A stretch of 64,000 nucleotides of DNA from Escherichia phage CMS-2020a, in the sequence record CP054387.1; one strand, written 5' to 3'. Positions within the stretch are counted from its first letter, which is position 1; every line of letters begins with the position of its first letter. Position numbers and translations under genes: made by a program. Positions 1-47,885 of this stretch are shown in pieces. The notes beneath the pieces were generated by a model. That model made no database searches. It saw nothing but the letters and a program-made list of their open reading frames with translations, and was not told the origin of the DNA.

Positions 1-459
1 CTTTAACTTCTAGCGAATTACCTTTTCTTTCAACATCATCAATACAAACCAAATAATTATTAACAAATTTATACTCAAGAGATGACAGCAGGTTATCTGT
101 TTTGAACCCAAAAAAATCGTTCTTTCCGAAATGTATTAAAAATTTTGACAAGGAGTTGTATTTCAACCATCCCCAAAACCCATTTCTATAACGAATCATA
201 GTTCGATCCGTTTCAGATAAAATTAGTTCTTTATATTTCTTTTCATTAATTGGTGTGGCACAATGATAAAGAGCTTTTTTAATATCACCAATAGAGTTAA
301 CCCCAAACAAAGAAACATACGAATATGCATTAAAATCTAATCCTTCAGAATGCTTAGTATAAAAACTATTCCAATAATGAGTTTTACCAACGCCCCAATC
401 TCCTTTTATGACGGCAACCCGATGATCTGAAACTAGAAAATTTTTTAGAAATGATTCTA
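1..459 (-). CDS. KAP-family-like P-loop NTPase, N-terminal fragment (gene continues beyond window start)
   Basis: Absent from ORF track because there is no stop inside the window. Minus-strand ATG at 459..457 preceded by AAGGA. My translation MESIESFLKNFLVSDHRVAVIKGDWGVGKTHYW... contains Walker A GDWGVGKT and a later hhhhDD (LVCIDDVER) Walker-B-like segment. Visibly AT-rich. Confidence 0.5.
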
Positions 460-520
460 TCGATTCCATTAGTATCAATCCTTTAATTCATATATTGGGC
501 GTAACAAACGCCCAATATAA

Positions 521-880
521 TCAACCTTTCTTCATCAACTCTCGTTTGATTTCATCGGTACGCATCGTGACATCGGCAGCTGTGATCGCCTCGTTCAGTT
601 TCACGATGTCCTCGATTTCCTGCGGTGACTTCTCTGCCAGATGGAAAATAGCAGCACGAATCACATCAGAGCGGGTGAATTTCTCGAAGCGAGGGATGAA
701 CTTCATCATCTCCAGCAGTTCGAAGTATTCGTCCTCCAGTGACATTGTGCGGCTTTTAATTTTCTCTTTGCCACGAGTCGGGCGTCCCTGTGGTCTGACT
801 GGTTGGCGCAAAGGAGTTGTGTTCTTAGCCGGTGCATCAGGCTCTTTGCGCTTTGCTAGGTCACCCATTTTCATGGACAT
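521..880 (-). CDS. small partition-associated protein (ParG/RHH-like centromere-binding candidate)
   Basis: 119 aa ORF immediately downstream of and start/stop-overlapping the ParA-like gene; basic N-terminus; position typical of the small partner in type Ib partition loci. Confidence 0.4.
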   Translation of the reverse strand: MSMKMGDLAKRKEPDAPAKNTTPLRQPVRPQGRPTRGKEKIKSRTMSLEDEYFELLEMMKFIPRFEKFTRSDVIRAAIFHLAEKSPQEIEDIVKLNEAITAADVTMRTDEIKRELMKKG

Positions 881-1548
881 TATTCTTCTTCCTCCAGACT
901 CAACAGATAATCTACAAATTCTTCAAACTCGGCTTCCGCCTTTTTGTCGCGCTCGCTACCGGTCATTTCAAAGATAGAACGACCAGACTCTTCCGCATCA
1001 TCATAGACGTTGCGGTTATATAGATTGACTGGCGCAGACTCGATGCCAAACGTCTCAACAATCTCTTTAGCCGCCAGAATGCGAGACACTTGTGATGGCA
1101 AAGCCGGGCACTGGTTCATGACCGCGCGGACCTTCACTTTATCGTTTACATTGCGAACATTGTCGATAATAGGATCGATGTCACGTAAAGATTTCAAATC
1201 ACGACGCTTAGGACGCAGCGGGATAATGATAACGTCAGCCATCAGCATCGCTTGTCGCTGAATTTCGGAGTCGAAGCCACCAGCATCTACCACTACAAAC
1301 TCAGCTCTACCCTGAAGCGATTTTAGGTGCTTAATGATGTCATCCTGAACGTATGCAAAAGGAATCAGCTCAAGGTCTTCGTTCTGTCGACGGTCTTCAC
1401 ACCAGCTCGTTGTCGTGCGCTGAATATCTATATCGGTAATATAAACCTTCTTCTTCTTTTTGACTTTCAGGCAAACGGCAATTTGCTGGGCAACGGTGGA
1501 TTTGCCAGGCCCGCCCTTTGTGCCGCCAACCACAAAGATCTTGGTCAT
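880..1548 (-). CDS. ParA/ParF-type partition ATPase
   Basis: 222 aa; deviant Walker A GGTKGGPGKST near N-terminus (MTKIFVVGGTKGGPGKSTVAQ), small ParA/MinD-like size. Confidence 0.85.
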   Translation of the reverse strand: MTKIFVVGGTKGGPGKSTVAQQIAVCLKVKKKKKVYITDIDIQRTTTSWCEDRRQNEDLELIPFAYVQDDIIKHLKSLQGRAEFVVVDAGGFDSEIQRQAMLMADVIIIPLRPKRRDLKSLRDIDPIIDNVRNVNDKVKVRAVMNQCPALPSQVSRILAAKEIVETFGIESAPVNLYNRNVYDDAEESGRSIFEMTGSERDKKAEAEFEEFVDYLLSLEEEE

Positions 1549-1866
1549 TGGAGAGTTCCCTTTGCGTATATAATTATCGTCTGAAACAACTTGTTTTCTT
1601 ATATGTGATATAGCCTAAATGCCTACGGCTGCGGTGTAAAGGTTAAATGGCAGGTTGTGATTAACAATTGGCAAACATAGCTTGTATTTGTCTGTTGAAA
1701 AAAGTAACAATGACCTCTATATTACAAGTACGGTGATATGCTGTACACAATTTGATAATGCACACGTAATGGGCTATAGCCTTTTAAAGTAATTTTTGAG
1801 TCGAAAACTCAGTTTGAACAGAGGAGATTGATGGCCTTCCTACATCACGGCCATCAGGAGGAATAC

Positions 1867-2136
1867 ATGTCAGCACTAAAAAAGCAGCGCATCGATTTGA
1901 GATTAACCGATGACGATAAAAGCATCATCGAGGAAGCTGCCGCAATGTCTAACCAGAGCATTACTCAGTTTATGGTTAGCAGTGCATCTGAACGTGCCGT
2001 GAAAGTTATAGAGCAACACCGTAGACTGGTTCTGAATGAAGAATCCTGGAATCTGGTTATGGACGCTATAAGCAATCCTCCGGCACCGAACGACAAGCTG
2101 AAACGAGCTGCTGATCGTCTGAAAAGCATGGAGTAG
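1867..2136 (+). CDS. DUF1778-type antitoxin (AtaR/TacA/KacA-like) of GNAT toxin
   Basis: ORF track starts at TTG 1828; ATG at 1867 has AGGAGG 6 nt upstream; MSALKKQRIDLRLTDDDKSIIEEAA... closely resembles the AtaR/KacA antitoxin family as I recall it; stop 8 nt before toxin start. Confidence 0.8.
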   Translation: MSALKKQRIDLRLTDDDKSIIEEAAAMSNQSITQFMVSSASERAVKVIEQHRRLVLNEESWNLVMDAISNPPAPNDKLKRAADRLKSME

Positions 2137-2143
2137 TTTACTC

Positions 2144-2665
2144 GTGGATAATATAAAGATAGAAATTTTCTCTGGAGAGAAAGATTATGATTTGAATGGT
2201 TTTGATTGCGGTGAAGAATCACTAAATACCTTTTTAACCAACCACTTAAAAAGGCAGCATGAGGGAAAAATTCTTCGCGCTTATGTGCTTTGCACGAAAA
2301 AAGGCAGACCAAAAGTGTTAGGGTATTACACTTTGTCAGGTAGCTGCTTTGAAAAGGAGTCCTTACCTTCAAGAAGCCAGCAAAAGAAGGTACCTTATCG
2401 GAATGTTCCAAGTGTTACTTTGGGTAGGCTGGCTTTGGACAAGTCCCTTCAAGGTCAAGGATTTGGCTCAATGCTTGTAACACATGCAATGCGCGTTGTG
2501 TACAATGCATCTCTTGCTGTAGGCATTCATGGACTTTTCGTTGAGGCGTTAAATGACAAAGCCAAGGCGTTTTATAAAAGTTTAGACTTTATCCAGCTGG
2601 TTGGTAACAACGAGCGTTCTTTGTTCTATCCTACAAAATCTATCGAAAAATTGTTCGAAGAATAA
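2144..2665 (+). CDS. GNAT-family acetyltransferase toxin (AtaT/TacT/KacT-like)
   Basis: 173 aa, GTG start; GNAT motif A region RLALDKSLQGQGFGSMLV, C-terminal KAFYKSLDFI; directly follows DUF1778 antitoxin. Confidence 0.8.
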   Translation: MDNIKIEIFSGEKDYDLNGFDCGEESLNTFLTNHLKRQHEGKILRAYVLCTKKGRPKVLGYYTLSGSCFEKESLPSRSQQKKVPYRNVPSVTLGRLALDKSLQGQGFGSMLVTHAMRVVYNASLAVGIHGLFVEALNDKAKAFYKSLDFIQLVGNNERSLFYPTKSIEKLFEE

Positions 2666-2696
2666 TGTACTCCCCTCAAGTGAGGGGAACTTCGCA

Positions 2697-2882
2697 TCAC
2701 CAACCGCAAACTCTCTCTCCCATCGTATTGTGAAAAAGGATTTGGCGTTCGGTTTCTTCGGTCATCACATCATTATTGCTGATATAGATAGGCCCAGCTC
2801 CATCGCAGAACAATACGCTGGCGGTTTGTGGTTTAATGACGCACCCACTTATCATACAACTCACGATGAACGGCAGAAGCAT
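2697..2882 (-). CDS. o-spanin (Rz1-like outer-membrane lipoprotein) candidate
   Basis: Internal ATG at 2882..2880 of ORF 2697..2912; MLLPFIVSCMISGC has lipobox ISGC; overlaps the 3' end of the Rz-like ORF in another frame at the end of the lysis cassette. Confidence 0.45.
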   Translation of the reverse strand: MLLPFIVSCMISGCVIKPQTASVLFCDGAGPIYISNNDVMTEETERQILFHNTMGERVCGW

Positions 2883-3084
2883 CTTTCTGACGTATTTTAT
2901 TGCTCGTCTCATTCACCACTTCCACTGTGCTTTGAAGTCGTTTTCTGTCTTCCTGTTTTGCCTTCTCTTCCATTGCTCGTCGCGCCGCATTCCCGCCCAT
3001 CGTGTAAGCGCCGACAAGAACGAAAAGAACGGCAGCCAGCGTAATCAAAGCAACTTTTAGCTTTGTCATCAGGCTGCCTAGCAT
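2833..3084 (-). CDS. i-spanin (Rz-like) candidate
   Basis: 83 aa, N-terminal hydrophobic TM segment (LKVALITLAAVLFVLVGAY) then charged helical region; immediately downstream of the endolysin-like gene; unusually short for Rz. Confidence 0.4.
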   Translation of the reverse strand: MLGSLMTKLKVALITLAAVLFVLVGAYTMGGNAARRAMEEKAKQEDRKRLQSTVEVVNETSNKIRQKDASAVHRELYDKWVRH

Positions 3085-3085
3085 A

Positions 3086-3778
3086 TTAGACCATCCCTTT
3101 CTGGTGTCTTCTTACCTGCGACCAGGCAATGAATCCTGCCACAACAATAGTGGCAATACCGAAGATGATGCGTACTGTATCCCCACTAGAGATATGACCT
3201 TGTGCTTTATCCATAGCAGCGGAAACCTGCGGCATAACATCGGCCAGCTGCGCCAGACCAATACCTGCTGTAACAGTTGCGCCTGCTGTTTCTTTAGTTA
3301 CAGGAACAGCCTTCACGGTTTTCACCGGCTTAACGACTCCAGCTCGACGCAGACCTTCCTCAATAACTTCTGCCGCATACCAGGTGTTCAGCGTTTTTAG
3401 CGGACCTCGCCCATTCTCATGGCGAATGATTGCCTCAACCAAAGGTCGAAGGATGTCGTAATCATGCAGATCGATGATCATGTCTGCGGTTACACCAACG
3501 GCTTTAGACACCTCATTAATGTAGGCGTCAGTATTGTTTTCATTCGGCGGTGCCCAACGTTCAATAACTTCACGAATGGTATCGATACTTGAGCCGTCTT
3601 TTGCGCGACGTTTGTCGTGGTAGGTAATTAGAGTCACCGCCAGCGCACGAATCCCCCAAACAGGGTCTTTAAACGTGCAAAAGCGCGGTTCGTCTGGATT
3701 CGCAACCAGACCTTGCCACGGTGATCCTTTATCAAGATTACCGGGGTTATTATTACGAATGCCTCTCGGAGTCTTCAT
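3086..3778 (-). CDS. lysis-cassette protein, putative peptidoglycan hydrolase (endolysin-like) with C-terminal transmembrane segment
   Basis: ATG at 3778 with AGGAG 8 nt upstream (ORF track starts further upstream at 3805); sits between holin-like and spanin-like genes; C-terminal hydrophobic stretch IIFGIATIVVAGFIAW; catalytic family not identified. Confidence 0.4.
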   Translation of the reverse strand: MKTPRGIRNNNPGNLDKGSPWQGLVANPDEPRFCTFKDPVWGIRALAVTLITYHDKRRAKDGSSIDTIREVIERWAPPNENNTDAYINEVSKAVGVTADMIIDLHDYDILRPLVEAIIRHENGRGPLKTLNTWYAAEVIEEGLRRAGVVKPVKTVKAVPVTKETAGATVTAGIGLAQLADVMPQVSAAMDKAQGHISSGDTVRIIFGIATIVVAGFIAWSQVRRHQKGMV

Positions 3779-3791
3779 CCTTGTTCTCCTG

Positions 3792-4115
3792 TTATTGCAG
3801 TCCATTTTTTACGCCATATGCGGCTAATCCTAAAATTAGTGCGGTTATAATAAACGACGTCACTTTAGAAATAATGCCTCCAAAGAAGCCGCTTGAGATC
3901 GAATCTAACCTATTAAGTAGTTTATCCAGATTGGAATGTTGAATACTGTGTTGAGCCGGAGTCATGTCACCAAAATAGTTTTTCAACTGCTCATGAACCT
4001 CATGAACTATCTCCTCTCTGATTTCTTTTCCTAATTTACCAACAACTTCTCTGGCGACAATTTTAGCTATTCTCTCAACCTGATCATGAGTGACGCCTCC
4101 TACGTCATTAGCCAT
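3792..4115 (-). CDS. holin-like small membrane protein (candidate)
   Basis: 107 aa with a single C-terminal TM (FFGGIISKVTSFIITALILGLAAYGV); first gene of the putative lysis cassette; AT-rich upstream region. Confidence 0.3.
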   Translation of the reverse strand: MANDVGGVTHDQVERIAKIVAREVVGKLGKEIREEIVHEVHEQLKNYFGDMTPAQHSIQHSNLDKLLNRLDSISSGFFGGIISKVTSFIITALILGLAAYGVKNGLQ

Positions 4116-4212
4116 GCTTCCTCCATGAGCAATCTATTTTAATATCCCCTTACATAATTTTATGTAATTTAAATATCAACTGAAATTTAAATAATATATA
4201 ACCTTTTATATT

Positions 4213-4725
4213 TTAACTAATTTTCAAATCTTGTGTAACCCCCGTCCTTTTCATTGCCGTTATAAAGGCCGAACTAGGTGTTCCTTGCCAGTAATAGTGA
4301 AAACCGTTAATAACACTATTGTAAGTAAAAACTTGTGAGACTCCACCAACTGTTACTGTAATATTGCTTGCCCTTCCCCCTGCGATGTATAAACCCCCAG
4401 TGGGCGGTAAACCAGGAACGTAGTGAGCTTGCGTAAGCACGATCCCCACTAAACGACCTAAACCACAGCTCGAAGCACCAGCAATTGTACCTTGGTTCTT
4501 TTCAGCCAATGGCCAATCTGAACCTACAGCCCCCCAGTTTTCGACTTTATCAGGAGGATTCCCTTTATAGTAAGCGGTTGCAATTTTACAGCCCATAGAT
4601 CTTCCCACCATTTGACTCATCATAAAAGGTTTACCCAGTCCTAATTTACTACCTGCGGCGCTCATCCATTGTTCGCCCGTTTCGTTCTTGGCCGAAGAAC
4701 CGACCCATCCCGATGTTACCCCCAT
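4213..4725 (-). CDS. hypothetical Gly-rich protein between tail fibre and lysis genes
   Basis: 170 aa ORF, no recognisable motif; position suggests moron or fibre-associated protein. Confidence 0.4.
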   Translation of the reverse strand: MGVTSGWVGSSAKNETGEQWMSAAGSKLGLGKPFMMSQMVGRSMGCKIATAYYKGNPPDKVENWGAVGSDWPLAEKNQGTIAGASSCGLGRLVGIVLTQAHYVPGLPPTGGLYIAGGRASNITVTVGGVSQVFTYNSVINGFHYYWQGTPSSAFITAMKRTGVTQDLKIS

Positions 4726-4810: not shown

Positions 4811-7800
4811 TTACTTCTCCCGAAGTTCTTTAATCTCATGACGAAGTGTTTTAAAGCCCTCGACTAACAATGCAATTATGCCGTTGTAGTTAAGACACAG
4901 ACGTTTTTCACCAGATATAACGTCTGTGTCTTCAGTTACCAGTTCAGACAATGCTTTTTGTGCATCCTGAGCAATTAAACCAACTGACGTTTTCCAACTA
5001 TCATCAGAGAGTTGGATTTCATAAAGATAACCAGTAAGTGCCTCCAAACGATCTAACGCATTATCTAGCTTTACCAGATTACGCTTGTTACGCTTATCTG
5101 AGCGGATCTGAACATCATTAAATGAGCCATTTCCATTTACAGTCAAATTACCTGTTATCGTACCCCCACCGATAGGCAAAGCACCAATTTGAGCGGCACT
5201 TATACTAATATTTTTTGTTCCGTCGAAACTTACTCCATTTATAGTACGTGCTGTTTGTAGCTTAGTTGCTGATGCTGCGTTACCAGATGTATTCTGATTT
5301 CCTGACGTATTCACACCTGGAAGATTAATGTTTGCGCTACCATCAAATGATACTCCACCTATTGTTCTTGATGTTTTTAATTTAGTAGCTGTTGCAGCAT
5401 TACCTGATGTGTTCTGATTTCCAGCTTTGTTAACGCCTGGTAAATCTATATTCGCTGTACCATCAAACGATACCCCCCCTATATTTCTCGCTGTTTTCAG
5501 TTTCGTAGCCGAAACTGCATTTCCATTTGAGGCAAGGGCGCCTATCTCTGAAGCCGTTGGTTTATTTTGAGAACTGTAATTACGACGCCATGTTGGGCTA
5601 TAGTTATCGCCGTTGTATGTATAAATAAACTCACTATTAAGAACAGCACCAGATGCACCTCCAGATGTTGAAGGTGTTGTAATGCGTATAGTGTAATTAC
5701 TTGTACCGGTTGAAAACACCTCAATAACAGAACCAGCAAGAGGTATAACTCCACATCCCGTTGATGCATTTCCTATATAACAGTTACTACCATAAGACCA
5801 GCTACAACGTGTGCTCCACTGAGTTGCATCAAATGCCCCTTGTGAATTTAACCATGCGACAAATTGTGCAGTTGTCCACTCTTGAGTATTCCCCGTAGCA
5901 AGATTAGCAACATATTTTGCTGCACCTAGTTGTTTTGGCGTGATGCTTATATTCTTTGAGCCATCAAAACTGACCCCATTTATTTTTCGTGCCGTTGCAA
6001 GTTTTGTCGCCGTTGCAGCATTACCTGACGTGTTCTGATTTCCAGCTTTATTGACACCAGGTAAGTCAATATTTGCAGTGCCATTAAACGATACCCCACC
6101 TATTGTTCTTGCCGTTTGCAGTCTCGTTGCGCTCCCTGCATTACCTGTTGTACTCTGATTTCCAACCTTGTTAACGCCTGGTAAGTCAATATTTGCAGTG
6201 CCGTCAAATAACATTCCACCAATTGAACGAGGTGTTGCTAACTTAGTGGCAGAGGCAGCGTTTCCACTAGTACTCTGAGTTCCTGTTGAGTTTACACCTG
6301 GTAGATTTATATCTGATGAACCATCAAACGGTACTCCGCCAATTTTTCGTGCTGCTTTTAATTTTGTTGCAGTATCGGAATTTCCGTTAAGTGAGCCTGC
6401 AAGACCATTACTAAATGTTTGCTTTGCACTCCATGTATTGGCTGTACTCAATAAAGGTATTTTATCGCCACTTGTTCCATTTTCCTTCAATCCAAGATAC
6501 TGAATAATCGCCTGTACACTTGCTTTAGAAAGAATATCTCGACCAACAGAAGTTATTGTTGCTAATCCAGCTGTATCATTCCCTGTAAAATAAGGAAGTT
6601 TATTAGCGGCTGTTGTTAGTCCAGCCAGTGCAGTCAGCGTAGCATCAAGAGGTTGTTTTGTGGCCAACTTGTTCGTCATTGTTGTGGCAAAATCGGGATC
6701 ATCACCCAAAGCCCTTGCCAACTCATTAAGAGTATCAAGCGCTTCAGGTGATGATCCTACAAGACCTGAGATCGCTTCTCTTACATAAGCAGTTGTGGCA
6801 ATTTGCGTATTATTAGTGCCTTGAGTCGCCGTTGGTGCCGTTGGTGTGCCAGTAAATGCTGGGCTGTTGATTGCTGCTTTTCTATCAGCAAGATCCTTTA
6901 CACTTTTAACCGCTTTTGTTGTTGCGGCCAATGATTCAGAGGCGTTATTTGTATCGCTACTTAATTGAACCAGCCCTTTTTGTGAAGTTGTCGCGTCATT
7001 TGCAGTATATTTTGATTTAGCAAGATCAAACGCAGCCTTTACTGCTTTTGGTGTTGCTGCAAATTCTTCTGACGAACTGCTCGTCTCACTGCTTAATTTG
7101 ACAATACCCTTCATAGTCAAACTGGCATCATGTAATGATATCGCTGACAAAGCTCTTTCTGCTCTAGTAGCAGCTATCTCTGCACGCTCTGCCGATGCAA
7201 GTGCTGATGTTTGGCTTTGCTTTGCTTCTTCTGCTTTAGCCGCAGATTCAGCTGATTTCGATGATGCGTTACTAGCACTAGTTGAGGCTTCAGCAGACTT
7301 TCGGCTAGCTTCATCCTTCGAAGCTCTAGCAGCAGACGCATAAGTTGAAGCCTGATTAGCGGATGTCTTCGCAGACCTTGCCGACTCTCTAGCCTGATTT
7401 GCAGAAGTTGATGCACTGCCAGCACCAGAAGCAGCATTCATTTCAGATAATTTTGCAGCCTCTTTAGAGACCAACGCAGCATTAGCCGAACTTGTGGCTT
7501 CTGTTGCCTTAGTGGAAGCTGTTGATGCAGAAATTGCAGCTGCGTTCTTCGCCTCTAAAGCACTTGTTTCTGATGCTTTAGCACTTGATGCACTTTTATT
7601 TGCTGCATTTTTAGACGCTGTAGCATCCAACGCACTATTAGATGCCTGAGTAGCCTTACTGCTTGCTAGATTCGCACTCTTCGCCGCAGCCGACGCACTG
7701 GCCGCAGCCTGTTTTGCTTTATCTCCTGCGGAATTAATTGCGTTAGTATTATTTTCATACCATTCTACGTGCTTATTATGCTCCGCGATAATCTTAGAAA

Positions 7801-30088: not shown

Positions 30089-30979
30089 TTATGCCGGTAA
30101 AGCAATTTCTAACGGTTTATCCAAAGGTTGTTTGTCGAATGCCAGCAATGGCAGCGTGTCAGGCAGTCGACGACCAAAGTCAGGGTTTCGATACACACCA
30201 TACAACGGAGACGTAAAGCTCAGGTTGTGAATGTCCTTGAGCAGCTTCACAATGCTGGCCTCGTCCACCAGACTGTCGGCAATGTCCTGAATCGTCGTGC
30301 CACGATTCCGCCCAGCTTTTGCCAGGGAACTGTTCTTGTGGTAGTCCGCCACCAGATCACGCAGTGCACGGCGACGACGAGACTCGCTCATTGCGAACAA
30401 CTCTTTGACGATCGCCTCGTTATCACCCGTGTCGGAACGGAAATGGCGCTGGAATACACGCAGTGCACTTTCATAGCTCTTCGGTCGCTCAGGGCGGATG
30501 AACTTAAACCCTGCTTTCATGGCGAAGGGATTGTATTTGCTCATCGAGGACTGGATCTCAATGATTGGCCGGTCATGCATCCTGCTAACCAGGTTAATCA
30601 TTCGATAAGAGACGCCTACGCCACGATACTGAGTATCCACAACTGAGCGACTGATCACCGCAAAGTTGTTATTCACGTACCGACCCCAGTACTGGTTAGC
30701 CACGGTGGTATTAGTGGTTGGTTTCAACTTAGGAAACATGCGGTGGCGAGGTGCCAACAGTAGTTTCGGGTAAGCCATAACCACGACGCCCACCAGACGA
30801 TCATCAAGTTCGCAGCGATAGTAAGTTGGCGCGAAAGGTTTGCCGTCTGTTTTGTAGTGAAGCGACTTAAGAGCGTGCCAGTCCTCTACAGTTCCCTTTG
30901 TAACAGTCATTCGCTCCAGAAAGTCCAGATGACGCGGAAACTCTTCAGGGCGGTAGCGTTTAATGATGATGTCCGTCAT
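30089..30979 (-). CDS. GNAT-fold acetyltransferase-like protein with C-terminal extension
   Basis: 296 aa; VVDTQYRGVGVSYRMINLV fits GNAT motif A (R/Q-x-x-G-x-G); YNPFAMKAGFKFI fits motif B; overlaps ABC ATPase gene by 4 nt. Confidence 0.5.
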   Translation of the reverse strand: MTDIIIKRYRPEEFPRHLDFLERMTVTKGTVEDWHALKSLHYKTDGKPFAPTYYRCELDDRLVGVVVMAYPKLLLAPRHRMFPKLKPTTNTTVANQYWGRYVNNNFAVISRSVVDTQYRGVGVSYRMINLVSRMHDRPIIEIQSSMSKYNPFAMKAGFKFIRPERPKSYESALRVFQRHFRSDTGDNEAIVKELFAMSESRRRRALRDLVADYHKNSSLAKAGRNRGTTIQDIADSLVDEASIVKLLKDIHNLSFTSPLYGVYRNPDFGRRLPDTLPLLAFDKQPLDKPLEIALPA

Positions 30980-31641
30980 AAATGGACCTCATCATGACTA
31001 CCATTGTGATATTCCACCTTCACGCGTTCTTTGTAGTGCTTGGTGATCTGCATATCCGGGCGCAGCGCGTTCTTCAGGTCTTCGTGAGTCGTCGCCACCA
31101 TTACCGTCGCACCAACCTTTCGAGCGGCACGCTGGAGGTTAGATGCCACAACCTGAGCGGTTACACGGTCTAGAACAGCACCGAACTCGTCAGCAGCCCA
31201 CACTTTAGCGCCTGACTCAATCAGTTTGGCAATCTTGAGACGATATTTCTGGCCGTCTGACATTTCAGAAGGCTTGCGAACAAACAGATATGCATCGTTC
31301 AGACCAGCCATAGATAACAACCCAAGCGCATCGCTGGTCGTTTTGCCCAACTGATCGATGACGTTAACCTCATTATCGAAGGTAAAATCATCGATGGAGG
31401 CTACAGACAGCCCTTCATCCTTCATCTGTCGTTGCAACTCGCGCAGCACAACGGATTTGCCGGAACCGGATTGGCCGGTGATGTACACCACATCGCCCTG
31501 CTTCACTTCCAGCTCCAGATTGTCGTAAAGCGTCCACTCTTTTTCGTCCAGGCCAAGCCCGAACGACTCAGCGATTTCCAACGTGCGCGTGGTTTTATTT
31601 ACGCGTGTCTGAAACGATACGTTGATGTTGTATTTGCTCAT
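30976..31641 (-). CDS. ABC-type ATPase (stand-alone nucleotide-binding domain)
   Basis: 221 aa; Walker A GQSGSGKS, signature-like SDGQKYRL, Walker B VWAADEFG, H-loop ATTHE. Confidence 0.8.
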   Translation of the reverse strand: MSKYNINVSFQTRVNKTTRTLEIAESFGLGLDEKEWTLYDNLELEVKQGDVVYITGQSGSGKSVVLRELQRQMKDEGLSVASIDDFTFDNEVNVIDQLGKTTSDALGLLSMAGLNDAYLFVRKPSEMSDGQKYRLKIAKLIESGAKVWAADEFGAVLDRVTAQVVASNLQRAARKVGATVMVATTHEDLKNALRPDMQITKHYKERVKVEYHNGSHDEVHL

Positions 31642-32306
31642 GCAGCCATCTCCCCGGAAGAGATCTTCTCCGCATATGCCACAAATGCGTCTACCCCGCT
31701 TTCTCCCGTCATTTCTTCCATATGGGCAAGCAAATCACCAACAACAATGGCAGAGCCAGCAGGGAGAGTTTTAAAGCCCAATACGTCGACAACACGTACT
31801 TCTTCCGCTGCAACTTCACGACTGATCTCGGTGTGTTCATCCTTCTGTCGTTTAGTTTCTTCGCTAAGATCGATAACTAGCGAGTCGGTGTCCATTTCTT
31901 CTGTCATACTGCCAACGAGAACATTCAACTCACGCTCTTCAAAGCCGAAAACCTCGATATCGTCCAGAACAAGCGACTCAAGCTCTTTCTGTAGCTTAAT
32001 TGCATCGTAATCAATGCTGGCAAGTCGGTTATCTTCAAGGCGCTTCGCACGAACCTCGTCATCACTGAGATCATCGCGAACAATAACCGGTACACGCTCA
32101 AGTCCAGCAAAAATTGCAGCCTCACGGCGGCCGTGGCCAGTAATAATTACGTCGTTCTTATCGACCGTAATTGGCTGGTCAAATCCGCGCTTTTTAATGG
32201 CTGCGGCCAGATCTCTGATCTGCTGTTCATCATGCTTTTTGGCATTCATCTCATAGGGAATAAGATCTGCCGGGTCGCGATATACGATTTCAAACTTTTT
32301 GGTCAT
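31638..32306 (-). CDS. ParB-like nuclease domain protein 1
   Basis: Start at ATG 32306 (AAGGAG upstream, TAATG overlap with upstream stop); IITGHGRREAAIFAGLERVPVIVRD matches ParB/Srx GxxRxxAA box. Confidence 0.7.
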   Translation of the reverse strand: MTKKFEIVYRDPADLIPYEMNAKKHDEQQIRDLAAAIKKRGFDQPITVDKNDVIITGHGRREAAIFAGLERVPVIVRDDLSDDEVRAKRLEDNRLASIDYDAIKLQKELESLVLDDIEVFGFEERELNVLVGSMTEEMDTDSLVIDLSEETKRQKDEHTEISREVAAEEVRVVDVLGFKTLPAGSAIVVGDLLAHMEEMTGESGVDAFVAYAEKISSGEMAA

Positions 32307-33004
32307 TACATACGCTCCTTGTAGTAGTCGACCAGCCACACTAGAGCCTCACCAGCGTTTTCCATTTCATTGCCAGTATTAATTGCCTGGTCTTTGATGA
32401 TGTTTTTTATGGTTTCTGCAACGCGATCTGACGCATCGAAGGTTACTTTGAAGCGCATGGTCTGATGTTCCGCACCGACACGTTCGGTTTTCTCTCGTTT
32501 GTCGGTATCGACAGGCTCATCACTACCACGAGACAACGCCTCCAGTGCTTCAAGGTCGATTGCCGCCTCTTTTGCTAAAACCATCGAGATTTCGTCGTCA
32601 TACGGGGCGATTTCAGACAGTTGATAGTCAAGTTCTGACTGAATTTCTTCAATGAAGCGTTGCAATGCGATTTGGTCGTCTTCACCGTATCGCTCGTTGT
32701 CCACCAGTGACATCTGTTTTGCCACGACATCGCTAATTTTGCCCACAGAAAGCACAGGAACCGTTGAAATTCCTTGCTCAATAGCAGCACGCCAGCGATG
32801 TTCGCCGCCGAGGATTTCAAAAAATCCATCTTCAAGCTCACGAGCCAAAATTGGCTTAAAAAAGCCCAATTTTTCGATAGAACCTTTCAGTTTTTCGAAA
32901 TTCTGCGCACCAACCGAATTGGTGTTCCAGGTATTCGGGCGAAGGTTGGCAACATCAACCTGCAAAATCGTGATTTTTACGTCCATTTTATTGCTACAAT
33001 CCAC
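32306..33004 (-). CDS. ParB-like nuclease domain protein 2
   Basis: 232 aa (start ambiguous, GTG 33004 or ATG 32986); ILGGEHRWRAAIEQGISTVPV is a ParB-type motif. Confidence 0.7.
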   Translation of the reverse strand: MDCSNKMDVKITILQVDVANLRPNTWNTNSVGAQNFEKLKGSIEKLGFFKPILARELEDGFFEILGGEHRWRAAIEQGISTVPVLSVGKISDVVAKQMSLVDNERYGEDDQIALQRFIEEIQSELDYQLSEIAPYDDEISMVLAKEAAIDLEALEALSRGSDEPVDTDKREKTERVGAEHQTMRFKVTFDASDRVAETIKNIIKDQAINTGNEMENAGEALVWLVDYYKERM

Positions 33005-43020: not shown

Positions 43021-43760
43021 AATGCTCACTCCTTCCAGAATGTTCTATACGGCGACTATTTCTGTTGGTGAATTGGGTGTGTTGTTTTCTCTGTCGGTGT
43101 ATGTGGTTTCGTTAGTTTTGCGGTGGTTCTTCTATGGGGGTGTTCTCGTCGTTTTGGTGATTGTTCTTCTCCGTGTATGGAGTAATGGCAGGTGGGCGAT
43201 TGCTTTCGTTATTGTGTTTGAGTTGTTTGTCTGGAGTGTGTGAAGGCTTTTGTAGTTATTCGTGTATTGGGTAATGGCGTTTCCCGTGATTGTTATGTTT
43301 CGTGTCTTTTGGGATTGAGAGAAACCTTGCGGTTACAGGCTTCGTTAGGGTTTCAGCGGTTCAGGTGTTTCTTCGCTGTTTGGGTAATGGCGTGTCGTGG
43401 GTATCGCGCGTATGAATGTTTTCGGATTGCCTGTGAAAGTTAGGTTGGTTGTCCGGTAGCCTGGGGAGAAGAGGTGGGTCTTTTCGGTAGCCTGCCATAA
43501 AGAGGTTGGTTGTTTTGGGTAATGGCATATGTGTTATTTGGTTGTTTTGTTATGCCTGAAAATAAGTTGTTTATATGGTTGTGTAACGCAACGGGAGCGA
43601 TTTTGAGCGTGTGTTTTTGTTGGTAGTGTGTTGAGTCGTCTGTGGTGAAATTTGGACGCTGTGGCGCTATCTGCTGCGTAGAATTACGGGTATAAGAAGT
43701 GATGTGTGATAACGTCAATTTTTTAGACCAAATCGGGAGAAAGCGTTGATGTTTCGTTGA
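43021..43760 (+). other. strand-asymmetric GT-rich non-coding tract with short repeats
   Basis: Plus strand strongly enriched in G and T; GGGTAATGGC at 43269, 43382, 43517 and a variant at 43180; only low-complexity ORFs. Confidence 0.5.
43454..43517. repeat. iteron-like tandem direct repeats (2 units of ~32 bp)
   Basis: ccggtagcctggggagaagaggtgggtctttt / cggtagcctgccataaagaggttggttgtttt; same family as 39939..40027. Confidence 0.55.
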
Positions 43761-44593: not shown

Positions 44594-46627
44594 TTACTTA
44601 ACCTGGTGGCCAGGTTTAGCACCAGCATCCGGGCTTAACAGGAAGATATCTTTCCCGCCAGGACCGGCAGCCATCACCATGCCTTCAGAGATACCGAAGC
44701 GCATTTTACGTGGTGCCAGGTTAGCCACCATAATGGTGTGACGACCAATCAGTGCCTGTGGATCTGGATAAGCGGAACGGATGCCTGAGAAGACATTACG
44801 CTTTTCACCACCGAGATCCAGCGTCAGGCGAAGCAGTTTGTCAGAACCTTCGACAAACTCCGCGTTTTCAATCAGCGCCACACGCAGGTCAACTTTGGCG
44901 AAGTCGTCAAAGGTGATGGTTTCCTGAATCGGTTCGTCAGCCAGTGGGCCAGTTACCGGTGCAGCTGTGGCTTTCACTTCTTCTTTGGATGCTTCCACCA
45001 GTGCTTCCACCTGTTTCATATCGATACGGTTATACAGTGCCTTGAACGGATTCACTTTATGGCCCAGAAGCGGTTGCTGGATACCATCCCAGGTCAGTTC
45101 TGTATTCAGGAATGCTTCTGCACGTTCAGTCAGTTTCGGCAGTACCGGTTTCAGGTACGTCATCAGCACGCGGAACAGGTTAATGCCCATAGAGCAAATC
45201 GCCTGCAGATCTGCATCGCGACCTTCCTGCTTCGCCACCACCCACGGAGCCTGTTCATCGACATAGCGATTAGCCAGGTCAGCCAATGCCATGATTTCAC
45301 GGATAGCTTTACCAAATTCGCGGCTTTCCCATGCTTCGCCAATCACTTCAGCGGCATCAGTAAAGGTTTTGTACAGTTGCGGGTCAGCCAGTTCGCTTGT
45401 CAGCACGCCGTCAAAACGCTTGTTGATAAAGCCTGCATTACGGGAGGCCAGGTTAACCACTTTGTTCACGATATCGGCATTCACGCGCTGAACGAAATCT
45501 TCCAGGTTGAGATCGATATCATCAATGCGCGAAGAGAGTTTCGCAGTGTAGTAGTAACGCAGGCTGTCAGCGTCAAAATGATTCAGCCAGGTGCTGGCTT
45601 TAATAAAGGTGCCGCGAGACTTGGACATCTTCGCGCCGTTCACCGTCACATAGCCGTGAACAAACAGGTTGGTCGGCTTGCGGAAGTTGCTGCCTTCCAG
45701 CATGGCAGGCCAGAACAGACTGTGGAAGTAAACGATATCTTTGCCGATGAAGTGGTACAGCTCGGCGGTGGAGTCTTTCTTCCAGTATTCGTCGAAGCTT
45801 ACGCTGTCGCCGCGCTTGTCGCACAGATTCTTGAAAGAACCCATGTAGCCAATCGGCGCGTCCAGCCAGACGTAGAAATATTTGCCCGGCGCGTTCGGAA
45901 TTTCAAAACCGAAGTAAGGGGCGTCGCGGGAGATATCCCACTGTTGCAGGCCAGATTCAAACCACTCCTGCATTTTATTTGCCACCTGCTCCTGCAACGC
46001 ACCGCTGCGGGTCCATGCCTGCAACATTTCGCTGAAAGAGGGCAGATCAAAGAAGAAGTGTTCAGAATCACGCATTACCGGCGTAGCGCCAGAAACCACC
46101 GATTTCGGCTCGATCAGTTCAGTCGGGCTGTAGGTCGCGCCGCAGACTTCGCAGTTATCGCCGTATTGATCCGGGGATTTACATTTCGGGCAGGTGCCTT
46201 TTACAAAACGGTCCGGCAGGAACATGCATTTTTCCGGATCGTACAGCTGTGAGATGGTGCGGTTTTTAATAAAACCGTTTTCTTTCAGGCGAGAGTAGAT
46301 AAGCTCGGACAACTGACGGTTCTCTTCGCTGTGCGTCGAGTGATAGTTGTCATAGCTGATGTTAAAGCCTGCGAAATCAGTCTGATGTTCCTGACTCATT
46401 TCGCCAATCATCTGTTCCGGTGTGATACCAAGCTGCTGTGCTTTCAGCATGATTGGCGTACCGTGGGCATCGTCGGCACAGATGAAATTAACCTCGTGGC
46501 CGCGCATTCGCTGGTAACGAACCCAGACATCAGCCTGGATGTGCTCCAGCATATGGCCGAGGTGGATTGAGCCGTTAGCGTACGGCAGCGCGCACGTCAC
46601 CAGAATTTTCTTCGCGACTTGGGTCAT
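44594..46627 (-). CDS. metG: methionine--tRNA ligase
   Basis: Translation from internal Met ([48 protein letters not shown]...) matches enterobacterial MetRS as I recall it, including HLGH and KMSKS motifs and C-terminal tRNA-binding domain; ORF-track N-terminal extension rejected. Confidence 0.97.
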
Positions 46628-46784
46628 AGTAGGCATTACTTCTTTGTAGTGAAAAGGGGCTTGATAGTAACAAAATGGCCTTATGTCTGCCATGTGATAA
46701 CAGCATTTCTCATAAATGATTAAATGTCGTAGCTGGAGTACACTACAAGGCGACAATTGCGCAAATTAAAATAAAGGAGACGGG

Positions 46785-47885
46785 ATGAGCGAGTCCAAAT
46801 CGCCGGATGCCCTGAGAGCAATGGTAGCCGGTACGCTGGCTAATTTTCAGCACCCAACCCTGAAACACAACTTGACTACGCTTAAAGCGTTACACCATGT
46901 TGCGTTGATGGATGACACACTGCATGTCGAACTAATCATGCCTTTCGTGTGGAATAAGCCTTTTGAAGACCTGAAAGAGCAATGTAGTGGTGATCTGCTC
47001 CGTATCACTGGCGCAAAGGCTATTGACTGGAAGCTGTCGTACAACATTGCCACGCTTAAGCGCGTCAAAAACCAACCAGGCATTAATGGCGTTAAGAACA
47101 TTATCGCCGTCAGCTCAGGCAAGGGCGGCGTGGGTAAATCCTCCACAGCAGTAAACTTGGCACTGGCTTTGGCTGCTGAAGGTGCGAAAGTTGGTATTTT
47201 GGATGCCGATATCTATGGTCCATCAATTCCAACCATGCTGGGCGCGGAAAACCAACGTCCAACCTCACCGGACGGTACTCACATGGCACCTATCATGTCT
47301 CATGGCCTGGCAACCAACTCTATTGGTTATCTGGTCACCGATGACAATGCAATGGTGTGGCGTGGACCGATGGCGAGCAAGGCGCTGATGCAGATGTTGC
47401 AGGAAACACTGTGGCCTGATCTGGACTATCTCGTTCTCGATATGCCACCGGGCACTGGTGATATTCAATTGACGCTGGCGCAGAACATTCCTGTAACTGG
47501 TGCGGTTGTGGTAACTACGCCGCAAGACATCGCGCTGATCGATGCGAAGAAAGGCATTGTGATGTTCGAAAAAGTCGAAGTGCCGGTACTGGGTATCGTT
47601 GAAAACATGAGTGTGCATATTTGCAGTAACTGCGGTCATCACGAGCCAATTTTTGGCACCGGTGGAGCACAGAAACTGGCCGAGAAATACAACACGCAGT
47701 TGTTAGGCCAAATGCCACTTCATATCTCTCTTCGTGAAGATCTGGATAACGGAACACCAACCGTTATTAGTCGTCCAGATAGCGAATTTACGGCTATTTA
47801 TCGTGACCTCGCAGATCGCGTTGCTGCCCAAATGTATTGGCAAGGTGAAGTAATACCTGGCGAAATCGCATTCCGCGCAGTGTGA
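46785..47885 (+). CDS. apbC: Fe-S cluster carrier ATPase ApbC/Mrp
   Basis: 366 aa; P-loop SSGKGGVGKSSTAVNLA, CxxC motif HICSNCGH; divergent from metG as in enterobacterial chromosomes. Confidence 0.95.
   Translation: MSESKSPDALRAMVAGTLANFQHPTLKHNLTTLKALHHVALMDDTLHVELIMPFVWNKPFEDLKEQCSGDLLRITGAKAIDWKLSYNIATLKRVKNQPGINGVKNIIAVSSGKGGVGKSSTAVNLALALAAEGAKVGILDADIYGPSIPTMLGAENQRPTSPDGTHMAPIMSHGLATNSIGYLVTDDNAMVWRGPMASKALMQMLQETLWPDLDYLVLDMPPGTGDIQLTLAQNIPVTGAVVVTTPQDIALIDAKKGIVMFEKVEVPVLGIVENMSVHICSNCGHHEPIFGTGGAQKLAEKYNTQLLGQMPLHISLREDLDNGTPTVISRPDSEFTAIYRDLADRVAAQMYWQGEVIPGEIAFRAV

Follow-up and report, generated by a model that had tools for sequence, protein, structure and literature searches.

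A conserved partition core between two variable cargo slots in the probable plasmid-maintenance end of an SSU5-type phage-plasmid of Escherichia coli

The SSU5 supergroup is an established group of phage-plasmids (PMC7969092), and for Escherichia phage Cyrano (pLF82) both 5.5 plasmid copies per cell and the production of virions have been described (PMC9928086). Cyrano, SSU5, and pHCM2 share a gene order of tail fibre, holin-endolysin-Rz/Rz1 cassette, a first variable slot (slot A), ParA and its partner, a second variable slot (slot B), a conserved hypothetical gene, DnaB helicase, and primase. In this study, we analysed the first 2,665 nucleotides of a 64,000-nucleotide stretch from Escherichia phage CMS-2020a (sequence record CP054387.1; the whole stretch is referred to as the window), which carry the ParA-partner operon of such an element together with a KacT-like toxin-antitoxin pair in slot A and a KAP-family NTPase in slot B. 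The element, its ParA, and the KacT-like pair are already present in public records and papers, namely those on SSU5, pHCM2, Cyrano/pLF82, and p09EL50, and the production of infectious virions was shown only for the relatives Cyrano and SSU5 (PMC9928086, PMC7969092). Our additions are incremental and concern the architecture of core and slots, a candidate defence cargo, a probably wrong toxin annotation, and a putative regulon marked by a short palindrome.

Based on the following comparisons, we regard the region as the plasmid-maintenance end of an SSU5-type phage-plasmid, consisting of a conserved par core and two flanking cargo slots, with a probability of roughly 0.85. Positions 1-4200 of the window were 100% identical to plasmid p09EL50 of E. 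coli O104:H4 str. 2009EL-2050 (NC_018651.1, 109,274 bp, circular) and likewise to NZ_CP022085.2, and positions 39001-64000 revealed 99.4-99.8% identity to the same complete circular plasmids (107-110 kb), so that the whole window can be assigned to a single SSU5-type phage-plasmid. In general, its relatives are circular plasmids of about 110 kb from E. coli and Shigella with 99-100% identity. At the nucleotide level, the maintenance region was 96% identical to Cyrano and 82% identical to Salmonella phage SSU5. The par core (520-1660) was found in 264 of 5,426 complete E. coli genomes, in 265 places, all of them on plasmids and none on a chromosome; SSU5-type elements carrying it occur in about 5% of complete E. 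coli genomes. To the left of the KAP gene, NC_018651.1 harbors genes for a conserved hypothetical protein, a DnaB-like helicase, a primase-like protein, a ligase, DnaE, an integrase, and a helix-turn-helix (HTH) regulator; an HTH repressor of the plasmid is encoded at 78935-79321. A search further leftward for a replicon, as proposed in an earlier reading made from the sequence alone (here called the sequence-only reading), yielded this replication module and a RepB-family plasmid initiator (NC_018651.1 60566-61780). As this initiator is located outside the window, about 31 kb to the left of its first position, it could not be seen in that reading; the published Cyrano repA primer had no match within the window at up to three mismatches. 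Besides the initiator and ParA, the same replicon carries phage capsid, portal, terminase, tail, and lysis genes. The element is best explained as a siphovirus prophage maintained as a low-copy circular plasmid of about 110 kb in E. coli and Shigella.

The features of the maintenance region are given below with their window coordinates.

1-469, minus strand: 5' part (156 codons) of the gene for a soluble KAP P-loop NTPase, Walker A motif GDWGVGKT at 380-403
491-519, minus strand: hairpin with a perfect 12-bp stem and no U-tract, found by repeat search between the partner stop codon (521-523) and the KAP start (469)
521-880, minus strand: ParA partner of 119 aa, phrog_5111
880-1548, minus strand: ParA partition ATPase of type Ib (ParF-like), 222 aa, deviant Walker A motif KGGPGKST
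1577-1649, minus strand: par promoter/operator block of 73 bp, single-copy and at least 94% identical in 728 plasmids
1656-2695, plus strand: variable slot A, here with the toxin-antitoxin operon, defined by the break in blastn homology
1695-1723, plus strand: promoter-like site of the toxin-antitoxin operon, TTGAAA-17-TATATT, from a promoter scan
1772-1781 and 1798-1812, within slot A: candidate operator palindromes of the toxin-antitoxin operon
1867-2136, plus strand: antitoxin of the DUF1778/TacA family (AtaR/KacA-like), 89 aa, Pfam TacA1/DUF1778 (PF08681, 5.7e-26)
2144-2665, plus strand: GNAT toxin (AtaT/KacT-like), 173 aa, GTG start, GNAT matches in Pfam, AtaT structure 6gts at 7e-79
2669-2690: GC-rich hairpin between the convergent toxin gene and Rz1, fold z = -3.3

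The sequence-only reading had named a P-loop NTPase with a GxWGxGKT motif running off the window, a small ParA with a small partner downstream, a divergent DUF1778/GNAT pair, and a neighbouring lysis cassette. All of them are present, each at or a few bases from the place assigned to it and with family matches far beyond chance; GDWGVGKT represents residues 23-30 of the NTPase, whose start codon is at 469 on the minus strand, and the lysis cassette (2697-4115, minus strand) lies right of the toxin-antitoxin pair. In regard to the "truncated KAP-like NTPase", the family assignment held (Pfam KAP_NTPase, PF07693, 25.3 bits against a gathering score of 20), and the truncation proved to be an effect of the window edge: extension to the left with the identical plasmid NC_018651.1 completed an intact gene (91460-93154) of 564 aa. 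The proposed single maintenance island was correct in its genes but not as a unit, the par core being flanked by two separate sets of variable cargo.

The boundaries of core and slots were determined by pairwise blastn against Cyrano, SSU5, Klebsiella phage pJN2-26, and two E. coli plasmids. Homology was continuous only over 520-1655, comprising the genes of ParA and its partner plus the 107 bp that precede the ParA gene. On the side of slot A, SSU5 and pJN2-26 cease to be homologous at 1655-1658 and align again from 2696-2715 onward. On the side of slot B, the homology ends exactly past the partner stop codon (520) and is regained 7 nt ahead of the stop codon of the NTPase gene. Cyrano carries the same KacT-like toxin-antitoxin pair in slot A, whereas SSU5 and the Klebsiella relatives harbor unrelated genes instead, those of SSU5 and pJN2-26 having no match in Pfam or PADLOC. 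Slot B is occupied by the KAP NTPase here but by a single DUF2971 gene in Cyrano, by three genes including a DUF2971 gene in SSU5 and pJN2-26, by two genes of unknown function in pWP4-S18-ESBL-07_2, and by a 357-aa gene on the opposite strand in p15ODDR. The DUF2971 alternative of Cyrano and SSU5 matched the PADLOC candidate PDC-S31 (3e-41). Among the PLSDB plasmids, 728 contained the promoter block, 145 the toxin-antitoxin pair, and 23 the KAP gene; these 23 were all non-mobilizable and of about 100-120 kb. ParA, its partner, and the promoter constitute the family core, which is flanked by two variable and mutually separate pieces of cargo, the toxin-antitoxin pair on one side and the KAP NTPase on the other.

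Both ends of slot B are associated with hairpins. The hairpin at 491-519 (fold energy -18.9 kcal/mol, z = -5.1) is located on the cargo side of the boundary, since the homology of most relatives starts at 520; in pWP4-S18-ESBL-07_2, positions 454-519 are shared as well. An unrelated slot-B gene of this plasmid begins with the same five codons (MESIE) as the KAP gene and is preceded by the same hairpin and ribosome-binding site (window 454-519; 3998-4064 of the pWP4 segment compared), and this shared 5' sequence suggests that cargo may have been exchanged by recombination at a common entry point. At the other end, a long hairpin directly past the KAP stop codon (-26.6 kcal/mol, z = -6.0), about 1.2 kb left of the window start, is part of the DNA conserved among the relatives (Cyrano, SSU5) and represents the left edge of slot B. 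Its position coincides with a 9-fold drop of expression in Cyrano, and it is likely the terminator of the transcript covering par and cargo.

The 73-bp promoter block occurs in six or more genera, among them Escherichia, Klebsiella, Enterobacter, Salmonella, Citrobacter, and Cronobacter, and the coding DNA flanking it is only 78-86% identical. On the minus strand, it contains a -35 box TTTACA (1640-1635), a spacer of 17 nt, and a -10 box TAGGCT (1617-1612), followed by the palindrome AAACAAGTTGTTT at 1596-1584, corresponding to about +8 to +20 of the par promoter. The -35 box, the -10 box, and the palindrome were all retained in two distant elements. As an RNA element the block was dismissed: no Rfam family was detected in 1-4300 at E <= 1, and the RNA fold z values were -0.4 and +0.5. 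According to the proposed mechanism, the sigma-70-like promoter of the block would drive ParA and the translationally coupled partner.

In the normalised RNA-seq data of the Cyrano lysogen (supplementary table of PMC9928086), values of 50 for ParA, 89 for the partner, and 55 for the slot-B gene were given, this co-expression being known for a 96%-identical relative whose slot B holds the DUF2971 gene; the next gene leftward of slot B reached 6, the typical background being about 10. Antitoxin (592) and toxin (344) form the highest-expressed locus of the region in the same data set (PMC9928086). The co-expression in Cyrano, together with the conserved strong hairpin past slot B, suggests that transcription from the par promoter reads through into the slot-B cargo and yields a shared transcript ending at this hairpin. 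A defined expression slot for defence cargo would be of practical interest for phage-plasmid genomics, though not surprising to a specialist.

The ParA of the element matched the ParA-like family of PHROG (4e-51), the Pfam families MipZ, AAA_31, and CbiA, and the structure of TP228 ParF (4dzz, 1e-10), and no N-terminal DNA-binding HTH domain was found in it. Its stop codon overlaps the ATG of the partner (TAATG). The partner family is small, with only 18 representatives among 1.84 billion proteins, and the homologs, down to 31% identity, were always located directly behind a ParA of 221-229 aa. In the distant ones the context was also the same, with tail fibre, lysis genes, ParA, partner, and DnaB. 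The alignment of the family revealed an invariant N-terminal motif MGDLAK(R/K) (MGDLAKR here) and a conserved ribbon-helix-helix (RHH)-like segment SRTMS(L/I)EDE...FTRSDVIRAAI, of which the putative beta-strand (SRTxSxE) is invariant. This segment resembles the strand and second helix of RHH proteins, as in the signature of CopG, Arc, and ParD. The N-terminal third of the partner is basic and disordered, the remainder helical, and two homologs had sub-threshold matches to Pfam RHH_1 at residues 49-85 (E = 0.005 and 0.11).

The closest described system is ParF-ParG of TP228, which shares the small Walker-type ParA lacking an N-terminal DNA-binding domain, a small downstream partner whose basic N-terminus is flexible and which bears an RHH-like signature, and a promoter/operator upstream of the operon. 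The partner described here differs from ParG in having no detectable sequence or fold similarity to it and in an extra helical part at the C-terminus. If the pair works like ParF/ParG, the partner would contact plasmid DNA via its RHH-like segment, and its conserved basic N-terminal peptide would stimulate the ATPase activity of ParA; the plasmid copies would then become distributed across the nucleoid, and each daughter cell would receive the plasmid. Judged from its position and the weak motif, the partner is presumed to be a centromere-binding, ATPase-stimulating protein.

The toxin in slot A showed 69% identity to AtaT and matched KacT (5xun) at 6e-74; it retains the catalytic Tyr144 and the acetyl-CoA motif QGQGFG. 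The antitoxin matched the structures of KacA (5zgn, 7e-42) and AtaR (6ajm, 1e-40). Based on these features, the pair was assigned to the AtaRT/KacAT group. The antitoxin gene comes first and is separated from the toxin gene by 7 nt. In the list of open reading frames, a longer, TTG-started frame begins at 1828, whereas the RefSeq start is the ATG at 1867, which is preceded by an AGGAGG ribosome-binding site. AtaR-AtaT of E. coli O157:H7 and KacA-KacT of Klebsiella share the order of antitoxin and toxin, the Tyr144, and the acetyl-CoA loop; unlike them, the pair of this study resides in the cargo slot of a phage-plasmid. Toxins of the AtaT, TacT, and KacT group acetylate charged tRNA and thereby block translation. 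The GNAT toxin would do the same and stop translation unless the labile DUF1778 antitoxin were resupplied, with either post-segregational killing or a phage-triggered arrest as the outcome. The hairpin at 2669-2690 is likely a bidirectional terminator.

The complete KAP protein matched phrog_4740 over its full length (3e-164) and contains a Walker B motif LVCIDDVERK; Pfam revealed no known domain in residues of about 255-564. Full-length homologs with 30-44% identity were found on SSU5-type plasmids of Klebsiella and Salmonella, in the transfer region of an integrative conjugative element of Salmonella salamae, and as an orphan chromosomal gene in Pragia fontium. The KAP defence proteins EF_KAP of Enterococcus and PifA of F and the PADLOC candidate PDC-S49 resemble it in two respects: a stretch of about 300 aa in which no domain is known follows the NTPase domain with its Walker A and B motifs, and they likewise occur as single-gene cargo on mobile elements. 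A search of the literature for "PDC-S49" gave nothing relevant. KAP NTPases fused to unknown C-terminal regions have been described to protect Enterococcus against phages (PLoS Biology 2026, PMC13552941). The cargo of the KAP slot resembles genes of anti-phage defence more than those of plasmid maintenance, and the most likely function of the KAP protein is a single-gene defence against phages or superinfection.

The palindrome within the par promoter block is one of a set dispersed over the element. Allowing up to one mismatch, the whole plasmid contained 19 sites of AAACAAnTTGTTT, 14 of them in the window, as compared to 0.4 in shuffled sequences; with up to two mismatches, there were 32 strand-matches against 3.8 +/- 2.3 expected from shuffles.

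1584, 29658, 29683, 39873, 40638, 41540, 42025, 43560, 44446, 44497, 48435, 53555, 58098, and 58827: sites of AAACAAnTTGTTT in the window
NC_018651.1 52455, 65980, 78394, and 90515: sites of AAACAAnTTGTTT outside the window

The palindrome usually has AGA ahead on the coding strand and is in each case located about 14 nt downstream of an AT-rich, -10-like hexamer, corresponding to about +8 to +20. Nearly all sites lie 10-125 nt upstream of minus-strand start codons, the linked genes being parA, the DnaB-like helicase, nrdB, a cobT-like gene, the gene before the large terminase (small-terminase-like), an S24 peptidase, and many small (early) genes. The sites at par and at the helicase were conserved in every relative of the SSU5 supergroup that was examined, and Yersinia pestis pMT1, which has neither the small ParA nor the partner, possesses six syntenic sites nonetheless. 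Dispersed sites are known for regulators of plasmid prophages, such as the C1 operators of P1, the O_B sites of RK2 KorB, and the dispersed sopC of N15. The likeness consists in about 19 short palindromes beside promoters, among them the promoter of the par operon and, comparable to P1 ban, that of the DnaB-like helicase, and the sequence of the palindrome is unrelated to the operators of P1 C1, KorB O_B, and N15 sopC. By analogy with the dispersed operators of P1 C1, the likeliest role of the palindrome would be that of an operator for a global prophage regulator. Most of the linked genes were silent in the Cyrano lysogen (RNA-seq, PMC9928086). No description of the motif was found in the searchable literature.

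Several results weigh against the assignment of these genes to a partition core and defence cargo. The ParA reached 115.7 bits, below the NCBIfam cut-off of 180 for ParA_partition. The partner has no significant match in Pfam, the Protein Data Bank (PDB), or fold comparisons, the fold searches having been uninformative. In addition, no iterated centromere repeats were detected beside par (470-1870; the search of 1-2000 gave only chance-level two-copy matches), and the array of tetramer boxes of TP228 parH was not found in the repeat searches. In contrast to the known KAP defence proteins, the KAP protein has no transmembrane segment (highest 19-residue Kyte-Doolittle mean 1.35), although transmembrane helices inserted in the NTPase domain are typical of the KAP family and not universal. 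Its match to PDC-S49 of PADLOC (3.7e-22) covers the NTPase domain only (residues 3-223 on profile positions 8-214 of 624), and the PDC families of PADLOC are candidates that have not been validated. Even so, the identity to complete circular plasmids, the relationship to SSU5-type phages, the replication module, and the plasmid-only par core support the phage-plasmid alternative of the sequence-only reading. Its other alternative, a plasmid-derived island integrated in the chromosome beside an ordinary integrated prophage, could appeal to the site-specific integrase gene on the element; on plasmids, such genes usually resolve dimers. With the entire 64-kb window being 99-100% identical to complete circular plasmids and the par core located on plasmids in all 265 cases, it was rejected for the sequenced relatives and retains hardly any probability. 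A toxin function of the RelE/ParE type in place of the partition partner was also judged to be very improbable. It derives from the Cyrano record and the corresponding publication (PMC9928086), in which the 119-aa protein is labelled "RelE/ParE putative toxin" (CYRAN_29, 6002-6361 of the Cyrano segment compared, equivalent to window 521-880). No similarity to RelE/ParE was obtained from Pfam, NCBIfam, or the PDB, even at E = 10; the disordered basic N-terminal third and helical remainder likewise speak against such a toxin, as do the RHH_1 matches of the two homologs. Moreover, the gene is always translationally coupled to a small ParA and never stands beside an antitoxin-like gene. The Cyrano annotation is probably wrong in this point.

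In regard to the cargo, it is possible, though we would hold this only tentatively, that both the toxin-antitoxin pair and the KAP NTPase serve mainly for the exclusion of phages and competitors and add little to plasmid stability, so that only ParA and its partner would be maintenance functions. The variability of the cargo points in this direction, with the pair on 145 and the KAP gene on 23 plasmids compared to 728 with the par block, and so do the SSU5 and Klebsiella relatives, which do without either of them, the PDC-S31 candidate defence gene in slot B of other elements, and the KAP fusions proven as defences in Enterococcus (PMC13552941). On plasmids, however, pairs of the AtaT/KacT family are classically addiction modules, and the outstanding expression of the pair in the Cyrano lysogen is compatible with either role. 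Another explanation, which we consider unlikely, concerns the palindromes: they could be bound by the ParA partner itself, acting as a centromere-binder and global regulator similar to KorB. This would agree with the excess of sites (19 against 0.4 expected), with the persistence of the sites at par and at the helicase in elements whose partner shows just 31% identity and still has the invariant SRTxSxE strand, and with the silence of most linked genes in a lysogen in which the partner is expressed. It is weakened by pMT1, which keeps its six sites without the partner, and a prophage repressor with dispersed operators such as P1 C1 accounts for the pattern at least as well. If the KorB-like explanation were true, a single small protein would tether the plasmid prophage for segregation and also keep its genes for lytic growth and replication silent, and exchangeable defence genes would find a ready-made site of expression in the slot behind the partner. 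The operator of a global prophage regulator is the role that we prefer for the palindrome.

The lysis cassette next to slot A was identified as follows.

2697-2912, minus strand: Rz1 (spanin in PHROG; Cyrano/SSU5 annotations)
2833-3084, minus strand: Rz (spanin in PHROG; Cyrano/SSU5 annotations)
3086-3805, minus strand: endolysin (endolysin in PHROG; Cyrano/SSU5 annotations)
3792-4115, minus strand: holin (Cyrano/SSU5 annotations)

Between the holin gene and the gene for the 1,123-aa tail fibre, a further gene (4213-4725, minus strand) encodes a protein of 170 aa with the N-terminal domain of a T4 Gp38-type adhesin (Pfam Gp38_N, 1.6e-20); the relatives vary at this position, where SSU5 has Cor and other genes.

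Elsewhere in the window, two proteins with ParB/Srx N-terminal domains and an ABC-type ATPase are encoded at 30976-32986 on the minus strand (NC_018651.1 14387-16397), upstream of the terminase genes; none of these genes is adjacent to the ParA gene at 880-1548. Positions 43030-43700 form a non-coding stretch of about 0.7 kb that is strongly G+T-rich (GC skew +0.36 and AT skew -0.35 in the 43-44 kb bin) and contains three exact copies and one degenerate copy of TGGGTAATGGC as well as other loose direct repeats. No tandem array was detected in it, and the stretch could function as an origin, in packaging, or in the manner of a centromere. Finally, the segment at 44594-47885 carries metG, encoding methionyl-tRNA synthetase, and a divergent apbC/mrp gene. 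It is about 90% identical to the metG-apbC locus on the chromosome of all E. coli and present on 223 plasmids, and is a captured fragment of the host. AtaT targets Met-tRNAfMet, and a plasmid-borne metG is a curious companion to an AtaT-like toxin.

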